Shown here: piece by piece, positions 9,879-48,816 of the stretch
Numbering within the stretch: the first letter of the stretch is position 1
Layout of the letters: each line of letters begins with the position of its first letter
NCBI GenBank assembly: GCA_013387205.1
Contig: WARV01000008.1
Coordinates: 128,136 to 192,135, forward strand
Direction of reading: 5' to 3'
DNA from: Patescibacteria group bacterium
GTDB taxonomy: Bacteria > Patescibacteriota > Doudnabacteria > UBA920
DNA: 64,000 bases
The notes under the pieces: model-generated
Told to the model about the DNA's origin: nothing
The model's database searches: none
What the model saw: only the letters and a program-made list of their open reading frames with translations
Translations under genes and position numbers: made by a program

Positions 9879-9892
9879 GATACCCCACGAAT

Positions 9893-9915
9893 ACCTCAAC
9901 CGATGGTTGAGCCAT
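9893..9915. repeat. GGCTCAACC-N4-GGTTGAGCC hairpin family, degenerate copy 1
   Basis: cctcaaccgatggttgagcc. Confidence 0.5.
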
Positions 9916-9928
9916 TCAATTCCGCATA

Positions 9929-31666: not shown

Positions 31667-32137
31667 CTACTAAATACTAATATTTACTAATAATACTAAA
31701 CTTAATTTTGTAAATTAATTATCCTTTTATATTTGACTCCTGTTTTTGTAAAATTAGCCAAAATACCTAATTTAATTTTTGCAGTTTTAATATAGTCGTT
31801 AACTTGCTTTATGTTTTTTAACCCAAAATTTTCATTTTTCTTAATCTCTAGTATTATCTTTGCGTCATTAATATCTATCAAAAAGTCAATATAGTATATT
31901 CCGATATATTTGCCTAAATAATATAGTTTTATCGGATATTGCTCAATAAAATTGATACCTGCAAATTTTAATGCCAATGAAACCGCTTTTTGGTAATGCC
32001 TTTCCAGTAATTCTCCACCCAATTCCTTAAAAACTTGATATAAAATCCCAATTATTTTATAGCACTCGTCTTTATAAATAAGATCTTTACGGTGCATTTA
32101 TTTTTAGTACTTTTAGTAAATTTTAGTATTTAGTAGT
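31667..32137. mobile_element. ~471-bp unit: GxxExxY-family gene bounded by 33-bp imperfect terminal inverted repeats
   Basis: left ctactaaatactaatatttactaataatact (31667..31700) vs reverse complement of right agtacttttagtaaattttagtatttagtag (32106..32136), ~30/33 match; extremely AT-rich. Confidence 0.55.
31702..32097 (-). CDS. GxxExxY-family protein (PD-(D/E)XK nuclease-like fold)
   Basis: ECYKIIGILYQVFKELGGELLERHYQKA N-terminal signature resembling TIGR04256 GxxExxY; 131 aa. Confidence 0.6.
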   Translation of the reverse strand: MHRKDLIYKDECYKIIGILYQVFKELGGELLERHYQKAVSLALKFAGINFIEQYPIKLYYLGKYIGIYYIDFLIDINDAKIILEIKKNENFGLKNIKQVNDYIKTAKIKLGILANFTKTGVKYKRIINLQN

Positions 32138-32262
32138 AAACAAAAATACAAAACCCCAGAATTCAACCGCCGATGAAATCAGCGACTAAATTCTGGGGTC
32201 CTGGCGAACATTTCGCTTGTTAAAGCAAAAAATTCGAAGCCAAGACGTTTCCGTCCCAGACT

Positions 32263-32554
32263 CCCCGCCCTTCAGATTGCATTCAAAGACTAAACTTTAA
32301 TCTCTTTCTCAGCTGGCTCCATGAACTACCGTATTGTTTCAGCTTTCTTTCCCGAATCTTTGCGTCTCGGGATTCAGCAAATGCCTCGTAATACACTAAT
32401 CGATAGGGAGCATATGCTTTGGTAGATTGGACTTTGAATGCATTATGTTCAGAAAATCTTTGTTTAAGATCGGTTGATTCACCGATATACGTATAGTCTT
32501 CTTTTAGACTTTTGATTACGTAAACATAATGCATATGCAATCTGAAGAGCGGGG
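32263..32554. mobile_element. ~290-bp unit: GIY-YIG gene bounded by 17-bp terminal inverted repeats CCCCGCYCTTCAGATTG / CAATCTGAAGRGCGGGG
   Basis: ccccgcccttcagattg at 32263..32279 and caatctgaagagcgggg at 32538..32554 (16/17 complementary). Confidence 0.5.
32283..32534 (-). CDS. GIY-YIG nuclease-domain protein
   Basis: YVYVIKS...YIGESTDLKQRFSEHN GIY-YIG motif; ~84 aa; start taken at ATG 32534 (track uses TTG 32540). Confidence 0.75.
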   Translation of the reverse strand: MHYVYVIKSLKEDYTYIGESTDLKQRFSEHNAFKVQSTKAYAPYRLVYYEAFAESRDAKIRERKLKQYGSSWSQLRKRLKFSL

Positions 32555-32738
32555 CTTTTTATCCGGTATTCCTCTAGAAAATACCAGACTATTTCTTTAT
32601 TTGTTTCAAACTCCCCGGTTGGTAGCCGGATCAAAGCTTGAAGAACTGAAATTATTATAACACAATTTTAAGATAGTTCAATATCAGTTTTCCACAATAG
32701 ATTTTTGGCTTAAATAAGCCAATAATAACCATATACTA

Positions 32739-32767
32739 TTGACATAATTGCCTAAATAGCCTATAAT
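32739..32767 (+). promoter_or_regulatory. consensus sigma70 promoter TTGACA-17-TATAAT
   Basis: ttgaca taattgcctaaatagcc tataat; shares 13-mer ttgacataattgc with 49150. Confidence 0.6.
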
Positions 32768-32802
32768 TACGCCACGTATTATATTCCATAGGAGGAAACA
32801 AA

Positions 32803-32892
32803 ATGCGACTCTTCAACGGACCGCCCACGCAGTCCAACTTCACTCACAATTACTTTTCCTTGGCTTCCACGTCCGAGTCCGCGAAAAACTGA
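32803..32892 (+). CDS. 29-codon ORF with strong SD at 5' end of GC-rich transcript (MRLFNGPPTQSNFTHNYFSLASTSESAKN)
   Basis: aggagga 7 nt upstream of ATG 32803; TGA stop 32890..32892. Confidence 0.3.
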   Translation: MRLFNGPPTQSNFTHNYFSLASTSESAKN

Positions 32893-33410
32893 CCGCCGGC
32901 GCCGGCCGCGAACCAGTTGAGCAGTGATCGAAAGGAGAAAGATGGACAACTGGCATCCTACCGGTTTTACCTAGACACTGCTGCAGTCGGCAGTGTCAAC
33001 CAAGAACCCTCTTGCCGGGCAATTTCCTGCCCGCCGGCCCGCCCGCGAAAATTTCACGGCTGCGCGGCTACAAGCCTGGCAATACAAACGGGGCGACGGC
33101 CTGAGACCTTATGGTCAATACTTTGGCCGCCTGCCAATACATCGTTCCATCGTTGATGTTGTTGTTACGCCAGCGAGCGGCGACAGGACATGCGATTAGA
33201 CCAGAAAGTTTTGGCTCGGTACCGCACCTGCGCGCGCCATCATCCCCATGGGGATGATGGCATTGGGCTGGCGTTGGGCAGCGCGGGAGATATCCCTAAC
33301 ATTGCTGCCCAGAGTGGTACCCGCTATCTAGCGGGGATGTGTAGTACGCGGGGCCGCACCCCCGCGAAAGACGCCGGCCGGCGCATAAAACCCGCGCCGG
33401 CCCCAACAAA

Positions 33411-33449
33411 AGCCCCTAGGACCTAAAAATCCTGGGGGCTATTTATTTT
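33411..33449 (+). terminator. rho-independent terminator ending the GC-rich unit
   Basis: agcccctaggacctaaaaatcctgggggct (11-bp stem incl. one G-U) + atttatttt. Confidence 0.6.
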
Positions 33450-33552
33450 GTCATTGCGAGCGACTGAAAGGAGCGCGGCAATCTGTACATCAAGAGATTG
33501 CTTCCACCTTCGCTAAAGCTACGGCGGACAAGTCGGATGCACTCGTGATGAC
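33450..33552. repeat. GTCATTGCGAG-family repeat, copy 3
   Basis: gtcattgcgagcgactgaaaggagcgcggcaatc ... gagattgcttc...tcggatgcactcgtgatgac. Confidence 0.65.
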
Positions 33553-33584
33553 GGACCAAAATCTACTTATCCACATTTAAATTT

Positions 33585-33613
33585 TGCTTATCTTTGACAA
33601 AATACAACAATTA
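33585..33613 (+). promoter_or_regulatory. sigma70-like promoter TTGACA-17-TAATAT
   Basis: ttgaca aaatacaacaattatct taatat. Confidence 0.5.
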
Positions 33614-33686
33614 TCTTAATATACGGGTGCTATTGTTTTTATACTGTCCTGATATTTTCGAAAATTTTGTCCCCTAAGGAGGGGGA

Positions 33687-33794
33687 ATGAATACATTTTG
33701 GTCGGTTTTTTTGCTTTTCGCTGTTTTTTTGATCTTACGGCACATGCTAACCCATGGCCGCAGAGGTCGCAAATGGTCAGGAATGATCACCTAA
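33687..33794 (+). CDS. 35-aa hydrophobic peptide with basic C-terminus (type I toxin-like small membrane protein)
   Basis: SD aaggaggggg then ATG; MNTFWSVFLLFAVFLILRHMLTHGRRGRKWSGMIT; one TM helix; too short for ORF track. Confidence 0.4.
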   Translation: MNTFWSVFLLFAVFLILRHMLTHGRRGRKWSGMIT

Positions 33795-33931
33795 AAACAG
33801 CAACAAGTTCCGGTTGTCATACCGGATGTATCACACGGCGTACCAATGCACTTAAACGGCAAGCCTGATATTAACGGCAAATGACCAACATACCAAAATC
33901 AGAGTCGATATCCTCACAAGGTGAACGAAAA

Positions 33932-33962
33932 AGCCGCCTCAGAGTAGCGAGGCGGCTTTCTA
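33932..33962 (+). terminator. terminator downstream of small peptide gene
   Basis: agccgcctcagagtagcgaggcggct + ttctaatt. Confidence 0.6.
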
Positions 33963-33969
33963 ATTGGCT

Positions 33970-34040
33970 GAATGGCTCATCCGATGGTTGAGGTATTCAG
34001 CCTATCAGTCTGATACGACTTATGTGTCCTATAGGACTTA
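33970..34040. repeat. GGCTCAACC-family hairpin (degenerate) followed by TCCTATCAGTC/ATAGGAC repeat cluster (locus 2)
   Basis: gaatggctcatccgatggttgaggtattc ; cctatcagtctgatacgacttatgtgtcctataggacttat. Confidence 0.45.
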
Positions 34041-34115
34041 TTGGACAGATATGGAATAGGCGGTCAGATGACCGCCTATAAATCTTACATCTTATATCTT
34101 ACCTCTTATATCTCC

Positions 34116-37100
34116 TTATCCCACATCAACCATTGTTATCTCGTTCACTTCCCTCAAAGAAGACATTAGCTCTTCTGACATCCTGACTTTTGTCTGGGTC
34201 TTAATGTTTTTCGCGTTCGGCCCTGAGCCGAGCGAAATAAAAACTTGCGCATTGCCGGGATGCTTTTGTAAAATTTCTTTTATCTGGTTCAGTAATTCTT
34301 TGCTGCCCAAGCCCGTCATATGCAAAACCACGCGCTTGTTTTTTTCCATTTCAGACAAAGCCATTATATACAATTCATCATTCGGCAGCTCCCTTAATTC
34401 GTCAGCTATTAATTTAAATTCTTCGTCTTTATCGGACAGCCTTCCGCTGACTTGGACGATTTTGTCATTAGCTAAAAACGGCAAGGCTTTTTCCATCACT
34501 TTAGGAAAAACCAAGACTTCAATGTTTCCGCCTATGTCTTCCAATGTGAAAAACGCCATCGGGTCATTCTTCTTGGTTAGCGTGCGCTTAAGCCGGGAGA
34601 TAATCCCTCCCATGGTTTTGTATGTACCTAAGTCCTGCTGCGTAAGCTGCTTGACCGATGTAAAGCTTTTTAAAACCTGCTTGTAGCTGTCTAAAGGATG
34701 GGCTGATACATACATTCCCAAATGTTCTTTTTCCCATATCAGTTTTTCATCTTTGGTTGCGGGTACCGCGTCTTTCAATCTCAATTTTCCAATTTGCAAT
34801 GATTTCCCGAACAAAGAACTCTGCCCGGTGTTTTCCGCTTTAAAATGCTCGCGCATGAAATCCAAAACCTCTTCGGTGTTGGCCAAAAGCTGACCGCGCT
34901 CGCCAAAAGCATCCAACGCTCCAGCCTTGGCCAAAGCTTCCCAGGACTTCTTGTTCAAATTTTTGGTGTGCGCGCGAAGCAAAAAGTCTTCCAAATTTTT
35001 AAACGGCCCGCTTTCTTTTCTTTGTTCAATCGCTTTTAAAATAACATCGGAACCAAGATTTTTTATGGCGTTCAGGCCAAAGCGGATAGTTTTGTCGTCA
35101 ACCACGGTAAAATCGCCAAGCGACTCATTAATGTCCGGCGGCAAAACCGCAATACCCATATTCTCGCATTCTTCCACGGCAGCGTAAATTTTGTCTTCAT
35201 CGCCGCTTTCCGCGGTCATCAAAGCCGCCATGAACTCTACAGGATAATTCGCCTTCATGTAAGCGGTCTGGTAAGATACTACGGAATAAGACGCAGAGTG
35301 CGATTTGTTAAAACCATATGCGGCAAAAGGTTCAATCCAGGTCCAAACTTGGGTAGATTTTTCAAACGACCAACCAGCGGTTTTCTGGCAGCCTTCGATA
35401 AATTTGATTTTCTGTTTGGCCATTTCTTCAGGGATTTTCTTGCCAACCGCTTTGCGGAACTTATCCACTTCCTGCCAGGTATATCCGGCCAAATCGTGCG
35501 CAATAGATAAAAGATCATCCTGGTAAACCAAAACCCCGTATGTCCTGTGCAAGATTTTTTCCAAAGCCGGATCTAAATATTTTACCAACGAAGGATTGTG
35601 CTTGCGTGCGATATAATCGGGAATGAATTGCATTGGTCCCGGGCGATACAAAGCTATCATGGCCATGATATCAAAAATATTTGACGGCTTAAGTTCCTTT
35701 AAATACCTGGTCATGCCAGACGAGCCCATTTGGAACACGCCGAAAGTCAGGCCTTCGGACAAGAGCTTGAAAGTTTTCGGGTCAGGGTGGGGGAGATTGT
35801 AAATGTCTATTTTTACATTATGCCTGGCTTGGGCGATTTTTACCGCGGCTTCCAAAATGGACAAGTTGCGGATACCGAGCAAGTCCATTTTAATCACGCC
35901 AACGGCTTTGTTGTTGGCATTGACATCGAGCGCGTACATGTCGTATTGCGTGATAATGCGCTCGCCGTCCGGTTCTTTTTGAAGCGCCATGTAATCGGTC
36001 AACGGAGTCGGAGTAATGACAATTCCGGCAGCGTGGACCGATGCGTGCCTGGCGCAGCCTTCCAGCTTTTTCGCGATTTCCAAAATGCGGTTGGTCTCCG
36101 GGTCGCGCTTGTAAATTTCGTTCAGCTCCTGGTTCATTTCCAAAGCTTTGTCCAAAGTCATGTGAAAACCCTGCTTGCCAATGGGAATCATTTTCGCGAT
36201 CTGGTCGCACTTGGAATAAGGCACGCCCAAAGCGCGGCCCACGTCGCGCACCGCGGCCCTGGCCATCATAGTCCCGAACGTGATGATCTGCGCAACTTTT
36301 TCCTTGCCGTACCTTTCGGTGATGTAAAGAATCGCCTCGTCGCGGCGGTTGTCAGCAATATCCAGGTCGATATCGGGCGGGGTGGGACGGTGCATGGTTA
36401 AAAACCTCTCGAACGGCAATTCGTATTCCAAAGGATCGACATTGGTAATACCCAAAACGTGCCCGACCAGGCTTCCGGCCGCACTGCCCCTGGTATTGGT
36501 AATCGCGCCTATTTTATGCGCGCCTTCCACAATATCCGCCACCATCAAAAAATAAGTATCAAAGCCTTTTTTGCAGATAATTTCCAGCTCGTAATCCAAT
36601 CGTTTTTGGATGTCTTCCGGCAGCACCCCTTCTTGTCCGTATTTTTCTACGGCTTTTTCCTGGGCTGTTTTCTTCAAAAATTCTTCCGAAGTGTAGCCTT
36701 TGGGGATTTCCACCCTTGGAAAATATCGTTGGTCGATTTTAATTTCCAAATTGCACAAATCGGAAATTTCCTGAGTGGCTGACAAAGCTTCCGGCAAATC
36801 GTAAAATAGCTCCTGCATTTTTTCCGCGGATTTCAACGAAAGATCATACGCGCGCATGTCCAACCGTTCAGTATCGGAAACCGTCCTGCCTGTGCCAATA
36901 CAAACCATCACGTCCTGCGCTTCGCTGTCTTCGGGATAAATATAATGGCAGTCAGCCGTAGCTACTGTCTTTAGTCCGTGCTTTTTGGCCGTGCTGGCTA
37001 ATTTTTCCACCAAAGATTCTTCCGCCTGGTCCTTGTTTCTGGCGTTCCTCTGCAGTTCAATGAAAAACCTTTCGGCCCCAAATATATTTAAATATTTTTC

Positions 37101-37574
37101 CAAAACTTTTTCCGATTCCTTGGTAGATTTGGACATTAAGCTTCTGGCCAATTCGCCGCGCATGCATCCGGAAAGGGCAATTAAGCCTTCATTGTGTTTG
37201 GATAATAATTTAAGGTCGATTCTCGGCTTGTAATAAAACCCCCTAAGGTGTGCTTGCGTGGTCAGCTCGATTAAATTCCTGTAGCCTTCTTCGTTTTTTG
37301 CCAAAAGCGTCAGATGGAAATAATCGGCATCTATCCTGCCTTCCTTGTCATCCATGGAACGGGGAGCAATGTAAGCTTCCAAGCCGATAATCGGCTTAAC
37401 CCCGGTATCTTTGCATTTAGTGAAAAATTCGATTGTCCCGTACATTACCCCATGGTCAGTCAATGCCAAAGCAGGCTGCCCAAGTTCCTTGACCCTTTCT
37501 ACAAGCGGGTCAATTTTGGACAAACCGTCTAAAAGCGAATAATGGCTATGGCAATGGAGGTGGGAAAAATCCAT
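34116..37574 (-). CDS. dnaE: DNA polymerase III alpha subunit
   Basis: N-terminal PHP domain (MDFSHLHCHSHYSLLDG), polymerase core, OB fold; 1152 aa. Confidence 0.95.
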   Translation of the reverse strand: MDFSHLHCHSHYSLLDGLSKIDPLVERVKELGQPALALTDHGVMYGTIEFFTKCKDTGVKPIIGLEAYIAPRSMDDKEGRIDADYFHLTLLAKNEEGYRNLIELTTQAHLRGFYYKPRIDLKLLSKHNEGLIALSGCMRGELARSLMSKSTKESEKVLEKYLNIFGAERFFIELQRNARNKDQAEESLVEKLASTAKKHGLKTVATADCHYIYPEDSEAQDVMVCIGTGRTVSDTERLDMRAYDLSLKSAEKMQELFYDLPEALSATQEISDLCNLEIKIDQRYFPRVEIPKGYTSEEFLKKTAQEKAVEKYGQEGVLPEDIQKRLDYELEIICKKGFDTYFLMVADIVEGAHKIGAITNTRGSAAGSLVGHVLGITNVDPLEYELPFERFLTMHRPTPPDIDLDIADNRRDEAILYITERYGKEKVAQIITFGTMMARAAVRDVGRALGVPYSKCDQIAKMIPIGKQGFHMTLDKALEMNQELNEIYKRDPETNRILEIAKKLEGCARHASVHAAGIVITPTPLTDYMALQKEPDGERIITQYDMYALDVNANNKAVGVIKMDLLGIRNLSILEAAVKIAQARHNVKIDIYNLPHPDPKTFKLLSEGLTFGVFQMGSSGMTRYLKELKPSNIFDIMAMIALYRPGPMQFIPDYIARKHNPSLVKYLDPALEKILHRTYGVLVYQDDLLSIAHDLAGYTWQEVDKFRKAVGKKIPEEMAKQKIKFIEGCQKTAGWSFEKSTQVWTWIEPFAAYGFNKSHSASYSVVSYQTAYMKANYPVEFMAALMTAESGDEDKIYAAVEECENMGIAVLPPDINESLGDFTVVDDKTIRFGLNAIKNLGSDVILKAIEQRKESGPFKNLEDFLLRAHTKNLNKKSWEALAKAGALDAFGERGQLLANTEEVLDFMREHFKAENTGQSSLFGKSLQIGKLRLKDAVPATKDEKLIWEKEHLGMYVSAHPLDSYKQVLKSFTSVKQLTQQDLGTYKTMGGIISRLKRTLTKKNDPMAFFTLEDIGGNIEVLVFPKVMEKALPFLANDKIVQVSGRLSDKDEEFKLIADELRELPNDELYIMALSEMEKNKRVVLHMTGLGSKELLNQIKEILQKHPGNAQVFISLGSGPNAKNIKTQTKVRMSEELMSSLREVNEITMVDVG

Positions 37575-40704: not shown

Positions 40705-40788
40705 ATTTGTCTTATAAGTCCTATAGGACCTATAGGTCGTATAAGACTGATAGGATAGCGAATGGCTCAACCCACGGTTGAGGTGTTC
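40705..40788. repeat. ATAGGAC/CTTATAAG repeat cluster (locus 3) plus GGCTCAACC-family hairpin
   Basis: cttataagtcctataggacctataggtcgtataagactgataggat ; gaatggctcaacccacggttgaggtgttc. Confidence 0.45.
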
Positions 40789-40931
40789 AGATGCCTATAA
40801 ACATTGGCTTTTCTAATTTACCCATCATCTTGCCAAAAATTGCTGAATCTGTTATAATCTACGCATTGACATTTTAAGACCGTGTGAGTAGGCAAATTTT
40901 GCTCATGGGCATGGTCGAGAGAAAGAATAAT

Positions 40932-48740: not shown

Positions 48741-48816
48741 GCCGTTGTAGCTCAGTTGGTAGAGCAACTCCATGGTAAGGAGTAGGTCATCGGTTCAATT
48801 CCGATCAACGGCTCCA
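48741..48816 (+). tRNA. tRNA-Thr (anticodon GGU)
   Basis: cloverleaf: GCCGTTG acceptor, anticodon loop ATGGTAA, T-arm ATCGGTTCAATTCCGAT, encoded CCA. Confidence 0.85.

Follow-up and report, generated by a model that had tools for sequence, protein, structure and literature searches.

Analysis of the window (the whole 64,000-nt stretch of Candidatus Doudnabacteria DNA examined here) indicated that a 35-aa open reading frame located on the plus strand at 33687–33794 is probably a real, expressed gene, encoding a bitopic membrane protein of a so far unannotated Doudnabacteria family (we place the probability of this reading at approximately 0.72, on the basis of comparative sequence analysis). 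The first-pass annotation had described the ORF as a small gene missed by ORF callers and had assigned it to the type I toxins. The gene itself appears to be genuine and overlooked, being conserved in frame at 12 other distinct loci, but its functional label as a toxin is not supported. Most likely, the peptide represents a new family of small membrane proteins that have a Nout-Cin topology and function at the inner face of the membrane, a role that we infer from its architecture.

The reading frame and its expression signals

The ORF extends from an ATG to a TAA codon and its product, as read from the window, is MNTFWSVFLLFAVFLILRHMLTHGRRGRKWSGMIT. The ATG (position 33687) is preceded at a distance of 1–2 nt by a Shine-Dalgarno (SD) sequence, aaggaggggg (33676–33685, plus strand), both exactly as described in the first-pass annotation. 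The sigma-70-type promoter reported there, TTGACA-17-TAATAT, also exists (10/12 in a motif scan), but its position had been given incorrectly as 33585–33613; the real site lies 9 nt to the right, at 33594–33622 (plus strand). The context of its −35 box, ctttgacaa, was found again upstream of orthologous operons. A scan of 2.6 kb revealed 7 promoter-like matches, compared to 4.2±2.0 expected from shuffled sequences. Since such matches occur in this AT-rich stretch at a frequency close to that expected by chance, the signals alone prove little.

The SD sequence is half-buried in a 6-bp hairpin (33670–33686, plus strand; stem UCCCCU/GGGGGA, loop AAGGA). Its mean probability of being unpaired is 0.45, which is within the range calculated for the orthologs (0.29–0.63); thus, the SD of the window gene is not specially occluded. 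The stop codon is separated from the downstream hairpin by a 3′ UTR of 137 nt (33795–33932, plus strand), consistent with the ~140 nt initially reported. This region is peculiar to the window genome: in the relatives the terminator is located only ~10–30 nt past the stop codon. The 3′ UTR contains a weak hairpin (33809–33826, plus strand) and, in the minimum free energy (MFE) fold, is base-paired with the 5′ region of the ORF (13-nt 5′–3′ pairing). The complete mRNA of the window gene folds better than shuffled sequences (z = −3.5).

The terminator hairpin, GCCGCCUC-N8-GAGGCGGC (33933–33961, both strands), has an 8-bp GC stem at 33933–33956 and lies between an A-tract and a T-tract. The first-pass annotation had assigned it to the peptide gene. 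The hairpin is indeed present, but the better U-run is that of the minus strand, i.e. the strand of the convergently oriented dnaE gene (34116–37574, minus strand): the run is canonical there (UUUUU), whereas the plus strand carries only UUUCU, and the scan flagged the hairpin as a terminator exclusively on the minus strand (33950..33934). In view of these two runs, the hairpin is best seen as bidirectional, and it looks like a terminator common to the peptide gene and dnaE.

Orthologs in Candidatus Doudnabacteria

Relatives of the locus were retrieved using the C-terminal 427 aa of DnaE as the query, which yielded 48 loci from species-representative genomes and a further 28 from metagenomes, nearly all of them labeled Candidatus Doudnabacteria or Patescibacteria. 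All retrieved loci have thrS next after dnaE, in the same orientation. The closest relative identified in the genome and metagenome scans shares 77% DnaE identity with the window. Since no relative exceeded this value, pairwise dN/dS analysis was not feasible, and selection was gauged from the variation of synonymous codons at invariant residues.

When the window peptide alone was used in a tblastn search, the best matches were found on the strand convergent to dnaE, in most loci at a distance of ~100–350 nt from the dnaE end (farther in locus L025). ORFs extracted at these sites are 30–39 aa long and have a hydrophobic N-terminus and a tail with the motif G-R-x-G-R-x-W. A hidden Markov model built from seven members identified six sequences that had not been used in training, five of them distinct (L057, L064, L060, L062 and L014, the last of which is identical to L056); the match to L057 had an E-value of 9e-11, and that to L052 was weaker (0.004). 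All of the untrained matches are located at the same dnaE-side site and on the same strand. Within the resulting 13-member set the E-values range from 2e-16 to 1.6e-10, the next six-frame segment scoring 0.19.

An orthologous ORF of 30–54 aa was thus identified at 12 other distinct Doudnabacteria loci (13 with the window), always at one site and in one orientation: just 3′ of dnaE, upstream of the thrS leader and convergent to dnaE. According to the first-pass annotation, its reading would be refuted if the frame was not preserved in relatives, and such preservation is what was observed at these 12 loci.

Residues G24, G27 and W30 are invariant among the first seven members. In the complete set both motif Gly residues are invariant and the Trp is present in 12 of the 13 sequences. 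The invariant Gly residues are encoded by up to four different codons (GGC, GGT, GGA and GGG) and the motif Arg residues by CGC, CGA, CGG, CGT and AGA, and no nucleotide similarity over the ORF was detected in blastn comparisons with the relatives. The use of synonymous codons at conserved Gly and Arg positions, together with DNA that cannot be aligned, points to selection acting on the peptide and not on an RNA or DNA element. Nearly all members are preceded by an SD-like sequence, and a TTGACA −35 box is located upstream of the cassette in every family-bearing locus inspected.

A neighbor-joining tree of DnaE shows the family throughout one clade and also in several neighboring lineages, including that of the window, a distribution that looks like vertical inheritance accompanied by losses or divergence. 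A member was detectable in only ~13 of roughly 70 loci and the transmembrane (TM) segment diverges fast; therefore, the gene is dispensable or replaceable in many lineages. As far as sampled, the family appears to be restricted to Candidatus Doudnabacteria (Patescibacteria/CPR).

Predicted topology and possible role of the peptide

Analysis of hydropathy and charge revealed the same architecture in every member of the family: a stretch of 17–26 uncharged residues, beginning at residue 1 or close to it, precedes a tail with a net charge of +3 to +7. The N-terminal segment ahead of the helix comprises only 0–4 residues, and the G-R-x-G-R-x-W motif directly follows the helix. In the window peptide a TM helix (approximately residues 2–23) precedes a tail of net charge +5, which carries the motif as G24-R-R-G27-R-K-W30. 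The maximum 15-residue KD hydropathy of this peptide is 2.58, its residues 1–17 are uncharged, and AF2 run on the single sequence predicted a confident helix (residues 2–23) and a low-confidence tail. Hydropathy, charge analysis and AF2 therefore agree with the original description of the product as a 35-aa peptide with one TM helix and an Arg/Lys-rich tail.

Basic residues flanking a TM helix are governed by the well-established positive-inside rule, according to which the peptide would be inserted in an N-out/C-in orientation. The Gly/Arg/Trp juxtamembrane motif would then be placed at the cytoplasmic face of the membrane and could there touch either anionic lipid head groups or a partner that exposes an acidic or RNA surface. 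In this reading the peptide would be a small membrane subunit with an accessory or regulatory function, and not a poison restrained by an antisense RNA.

Small regulatory membrane proteins such as MgrB, AcrZ, MgtS, KdpF, CydX and Prli42 offer a close parallel to this proposed role. Like the members of the family, they are single-pass proteins (30–50 aa) whose genes have a conserved neighborhood. They frequently share a transcript with membrane partners, exert their effect by binding to larger membrane proteins and, for the most part, remained unannotated until comparative genomics or ribosome profiling was applied. However, the family shows no sequence similarity to any of them, its co-transcribed genes are only small TM ORFs and, within the sampled genomes, it is confined to Doudnabacteria. 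Little is understood of the small genomes of CPR/Patescibacteria, in which hardly any small proteins have been annotated. A conserved membrane protein of 30–54 aa with a sharply defined, presumably cytoplasmic motif, encoded in a fixed cassette of rapidly evolving small membrane ORFs, is a concrete candidate for experimental studies of CPR membrane biology.

A small-membrane-ORF cassette between dnaE and thrS

In most of the relatives the family ORF is the last cistron, located after one or two other small membrane ORFs preceded by SD sequences. These operon partners are TM ORFs, each with its own SD, and they vary by lineage even among family-bearing loci. They include (i) 2-TM proteins of 73–78 aa (L012, L038, L064 and L057), (ii) proteins of 49–52 aa (L014 and L015) and (iii) 1-TM proteins (L005, L019 and L052). 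In L060 and in the window the cassette is reduced to the GRxGRxW gene, which is monocistronic. Small TM ORFs are also present in the same gap of most loci in which no family member was detectable, and the small TM ORFs of the gap cannot be aligned between lineages.

The distance between the 3′ end of dnaE and the thrS-leader promoter ranges from 142 to 2726 nt (loci L001–L073). Nearly all of the Doudnabacteria loci inspected contain 1–3 SD-preceded small TM ORFs in this gap, convergent to dnaE.

As judged from these comparisons, the dnaE-thrS gap is a fixed site for a hypervariable, fast-evolving cassette of small membrane ORFs, of which the GRxGRxW peptide is, by the same criterion, the most conserved component. 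The presence of unalignable TM ORFs in nearly all loci, partners that differ even between loci sharing the family, and the variable length of the gap are consistent with a cassette engaged in interaction with the host, i.e. a constant location for small peptides, membrane-bound or exported, that are hypervariable and involved, for example, in episymbiont-host contact or phage exclusion, with the GRxGRxW peptide as one of its allele classes. We consider this explanation unlikely: the conserved part of the peptide is a basic motif predicted to be on the cytoplasmic side and not an exposed segment, the part that would be extracellular has merely 0–4 residues, and PADLOC and PHROGs searches gave nothing for the window peptide (one ortholog produced a single sub-threshold PHROGs match).

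Comparison with type I toxins

Many type I toxins have the shape of a TM helix with a short basic tail, and a 35-aa peptide with one such helix and a basic tail resembles toxins of the Ldr and PepA1 type. It was partly this shape that underlay the original assignment of the gene to a type I toxin-antitoxin (TA) system. The likeness to Ldr/Fst and PepA1 (SprA1) includes a length of less than 60 aa, a single N-terminal TM helix, a short Arg/Lys-rich tail, a separate promoter and terminator, and the fact that the gene was overlooked by gene callers. By itself, however, the combination of a hydrophobic peptide and a basic tail is no evidence for a type I toxin, and beyond its shape no feature identifies the gene as one.

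According to the TA interpretation, the peptide would be a membrane-depolarizing toxin, and an antisense RNA would repress its translation. The antitoxin could be either the transcript of a weak minus-strand promoter-like site within the 3′ UTR (TTGGTA-17-TAATAT, 33896..33868) or dnaE read-through over the shared terminator, and the convergent transcription through the bidirectional hairpin is compatible with the latter. Such control would also be in keeping with the partial pairing of the SD in its 6-bp hairpin, with the base pairing between the 3′ UTR and the 5′ ORF region in the MFE fold of the mRNA (z = −3.5), and with the gene having a promoter and terminator of its own. However, a check for an antisense promoter, suggested in the first-pass annotation, revealed no site of at least 9/12 in the region 33650–34100, and the best minus-strand site (8/12) is at chance level. 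No relative has the 3′ UTR in which the antisense RNA would have to be encoded; in all of them the terminator closely follows the stop codon. The accessibility of the SD is ordinary, and the orthologs share no occluding structure. A search of the region 32540–34120 for RNA complementary to the peptide gene gave no significant match; a complementarity of 20 nt (80%) at 33551–33570 lies upstream of the promoter, and by our own estimate ~0.5 such matches are expected by chance per 1.6 kb.

The genomic setting also differs from that of known systems. The suggested search for paralogs revealed no second copy of the gene within the 64-kb window. All 13 members occupy the dnaE-thrS site, their distribution is clade-wide and apparently vertical, the gene shares an operon with other small membrane ORFs, and a specific, presumably cytoplasmic motif is conserved; a single copy, a fixed locus, clade-wide spread, an operon setting and a specific motif are not typical of type I toxins. 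In contrast to Ldr, Fst and PepA1, no cognate antisense RNA, long structured 5′ UTR or tandem/multi-copy arrangement was found for the window gene, which resides at one chromosomal site across a coherent clade (with DnaE C-termini ~70–77% identical to that of the window) and is usually the last cistron of a multi-ORF operon. To our knowledge, the G-R-x-G-R-x-W motif is absent from toxins of this group. The hmmscan analysis against Pfam and NCBIfam, libraries that include type I toxin families, matched no toxin family at E≤10, the only match being to DUF3675 (13 bits, below its cut-off), and a literature search combining “type I toxin” with “Patescibacteria” returned nothing.

The surroundings of the gene had been interpreted as a 1.5-kb gene-free region and a typical TA context. 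This description does not hold, since the region contains the 5′ half of the thrS leader, a GC-rich unit and two repeat elements, and the GC-rich unit and repeats are separate elements, absent from the relatives. Taken with the data above, a type I TA module is a quite unlikely interpretation of the locus.

A membrane toxin or growth brake of another kind, chromosomally fixed, vertically inherited and controlled, in place of a dedicated sRNA, either by convergent dnaE transcription via the shared terminator or by the operon partners, seems very unlikely. If true, it would couple membrane energization to the expression of a replication gene in an ultra-small episymbiont.

Database searches and annotation status

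An alignment query against 5.8e9 proteins found no match, and a profile search of the PDB gave no meaningful one. The sole phmmer match among 1.84e9 representatives, P0001, was rejected as spurious, being a translated tandem repeat. The exact window peptide was not found as a called gene. Only one of 10 orthologs has ever been called, i.e. the 53-aa form of L062, which is an unnamed singleton in a 15-billion-protein collection, and a search with this sequence (P0002) matched only itself. Rfam was searched with the window and 11 loci at the gathering threshold, and with the region 32100–34200 at E≤10; nothing relevant was revealed.

The near-chance frequency of promoter-like matches, the absence of the ORF from gene calls and the lack of homologs in protein databases would all suit a spurious ORF, created by chance signals in AT-rich intergenic DNA or overlying a conserved RNA or DNA element, but this reading is already contradicted by conservation in frame at 13 distinct loci (both the start and the stop codon, the SD and the terminator included), by synonymous variation at invariant residues, by a peptide that can be aligned where the DNA cannot, and by the location of all matches at one syntenic position and on one strand, and we regard it as extremely improbable.

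The thrS leader RNA

An RNA element preceding thrS was identified next to the cassette, on the minus strand at 32153–32681 (core 32554–32659). The conserved DNA at 32554–32659 corresponds to the 5′ part of this leader. The leader was identified in ~55 Doudnabacteria loci, in every case upstream of thrS, and the window contains a single copy. Its promoter reads TTGAAC-16-TATAAT in the window and TTGCCA/TATAAT in the relatives. Helix P0 (UUCAAG/CUUGAA) and hairpin P1 covary, with compensatory changes in 7 of 11 pairs. The 7-nt loop of P1 contains an invariant ACCA, equivalent to the Thr codon ACC plus A, and the loop of hairpin P2 is UUCUAGAG. P2 is followed, in order, by GAUGAAAAG, a variable hairpin, the invariant CUGGGACGGAAACG and a terminator (32199–32153), whose 5′ arm is able to pair alternatively with CUGGG. 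The sequence CUGGGACGGAAACGUC of the leader is located at 32259–32244 (minus strand). No Rfam or T-box match to the leader was obtained even at E≤10. The element is attenuator-like, possibly a minimal T-box-like sensor of tRNA-Thr, and it may be of more interest than the peptide gene. The tRNA-Thr(GGU) gene of the window lies at 48741–48816 and has U as the discriminator base.

Two ORFs are associated with the leader. The first, of 85 aa and of the GIY-YIG type (32283–32540, minus strand), sits within the variable hairpin; the spacing between UCUAGAG and GGACGGAAACG is 322 nt in the window, compared to 22–122 nt in the relatives. The second, of 131 aa (31702–32097, minus strand), is located between the leader terminator and thrS and is, by its appearance, presumably PD-(D/E)XK-like. 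Given such insertions of selfish genes into a regulatory RNA, the thrS leader of the window may no longer be functional. A possible start codon in the conserved element, ATGAAAAG, was also considered and rejected: it lies inside the promoter-to-terminator leader RNA and reads ATAAAAAG in the window.

Other elements adjacent to the gene

The GC-rich unit (32739–33445, plus strand) has a GC content of 55–65% in a genome of 42% GC. It begins with a perfect promoter, TTGACA-17-TATAAT (32739–32767), followed by a strong SD and a 29-aa ORF (32803–32892). The ~500 nt after this ORF are highly structured (fold z = −6.5), and the unit ends with an 11-bp terminator (33411–33440). No match to it was found in Rfam and no homolog in the 76 related loci, and a 26-nt palindrome taken from it gave no match in a scan of viral contigs. 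In L012, an unrelated short promoter-to-terminator unit occupies the same position.

Two DnaA-box-like nonamers were identified, at 32688–32696 and 33567–33575. One sequence of this kind, TTTTCCACA, adjoins the −35 box of the thrS leader, is conserved in the relatives and is tripled in L062. The other, a perfect TTATCCACA, is located 19 nt upstream of the −35 box of the peptide promoter. An origin of replication (oriC) built from these boxes was rejected, since their window-wide count equals that expected by chance and the GC skew does not turn at this locus; the nonamers are probably a transcription-factor site.

The DNA that separates the GC-rich unit from the peptide promoter contains a palindromic repeat element at 33450–33552 (GTCATTGCGAGCG...CACTCGTGATGAC). 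This element looks MITE-like; a stretch of L059 matches it with 80% identity, and elements of the same type flank a GIY-YIG gene in L060. On the other side of the gene, between the cassette terminator and dnaE, a long palindrome (cttgttcataactctcaca..tgtgag..tgaacaag) is conserved in L012, L038, L064 and L023. In the window, the shared terminator is separated from the stop codon of dnaE by a dispersed short repeat with an internal inverted repeat (33968–34050), further copies of which are present at 40705–40790 and 9889–9918 (78–87% identity between copies).
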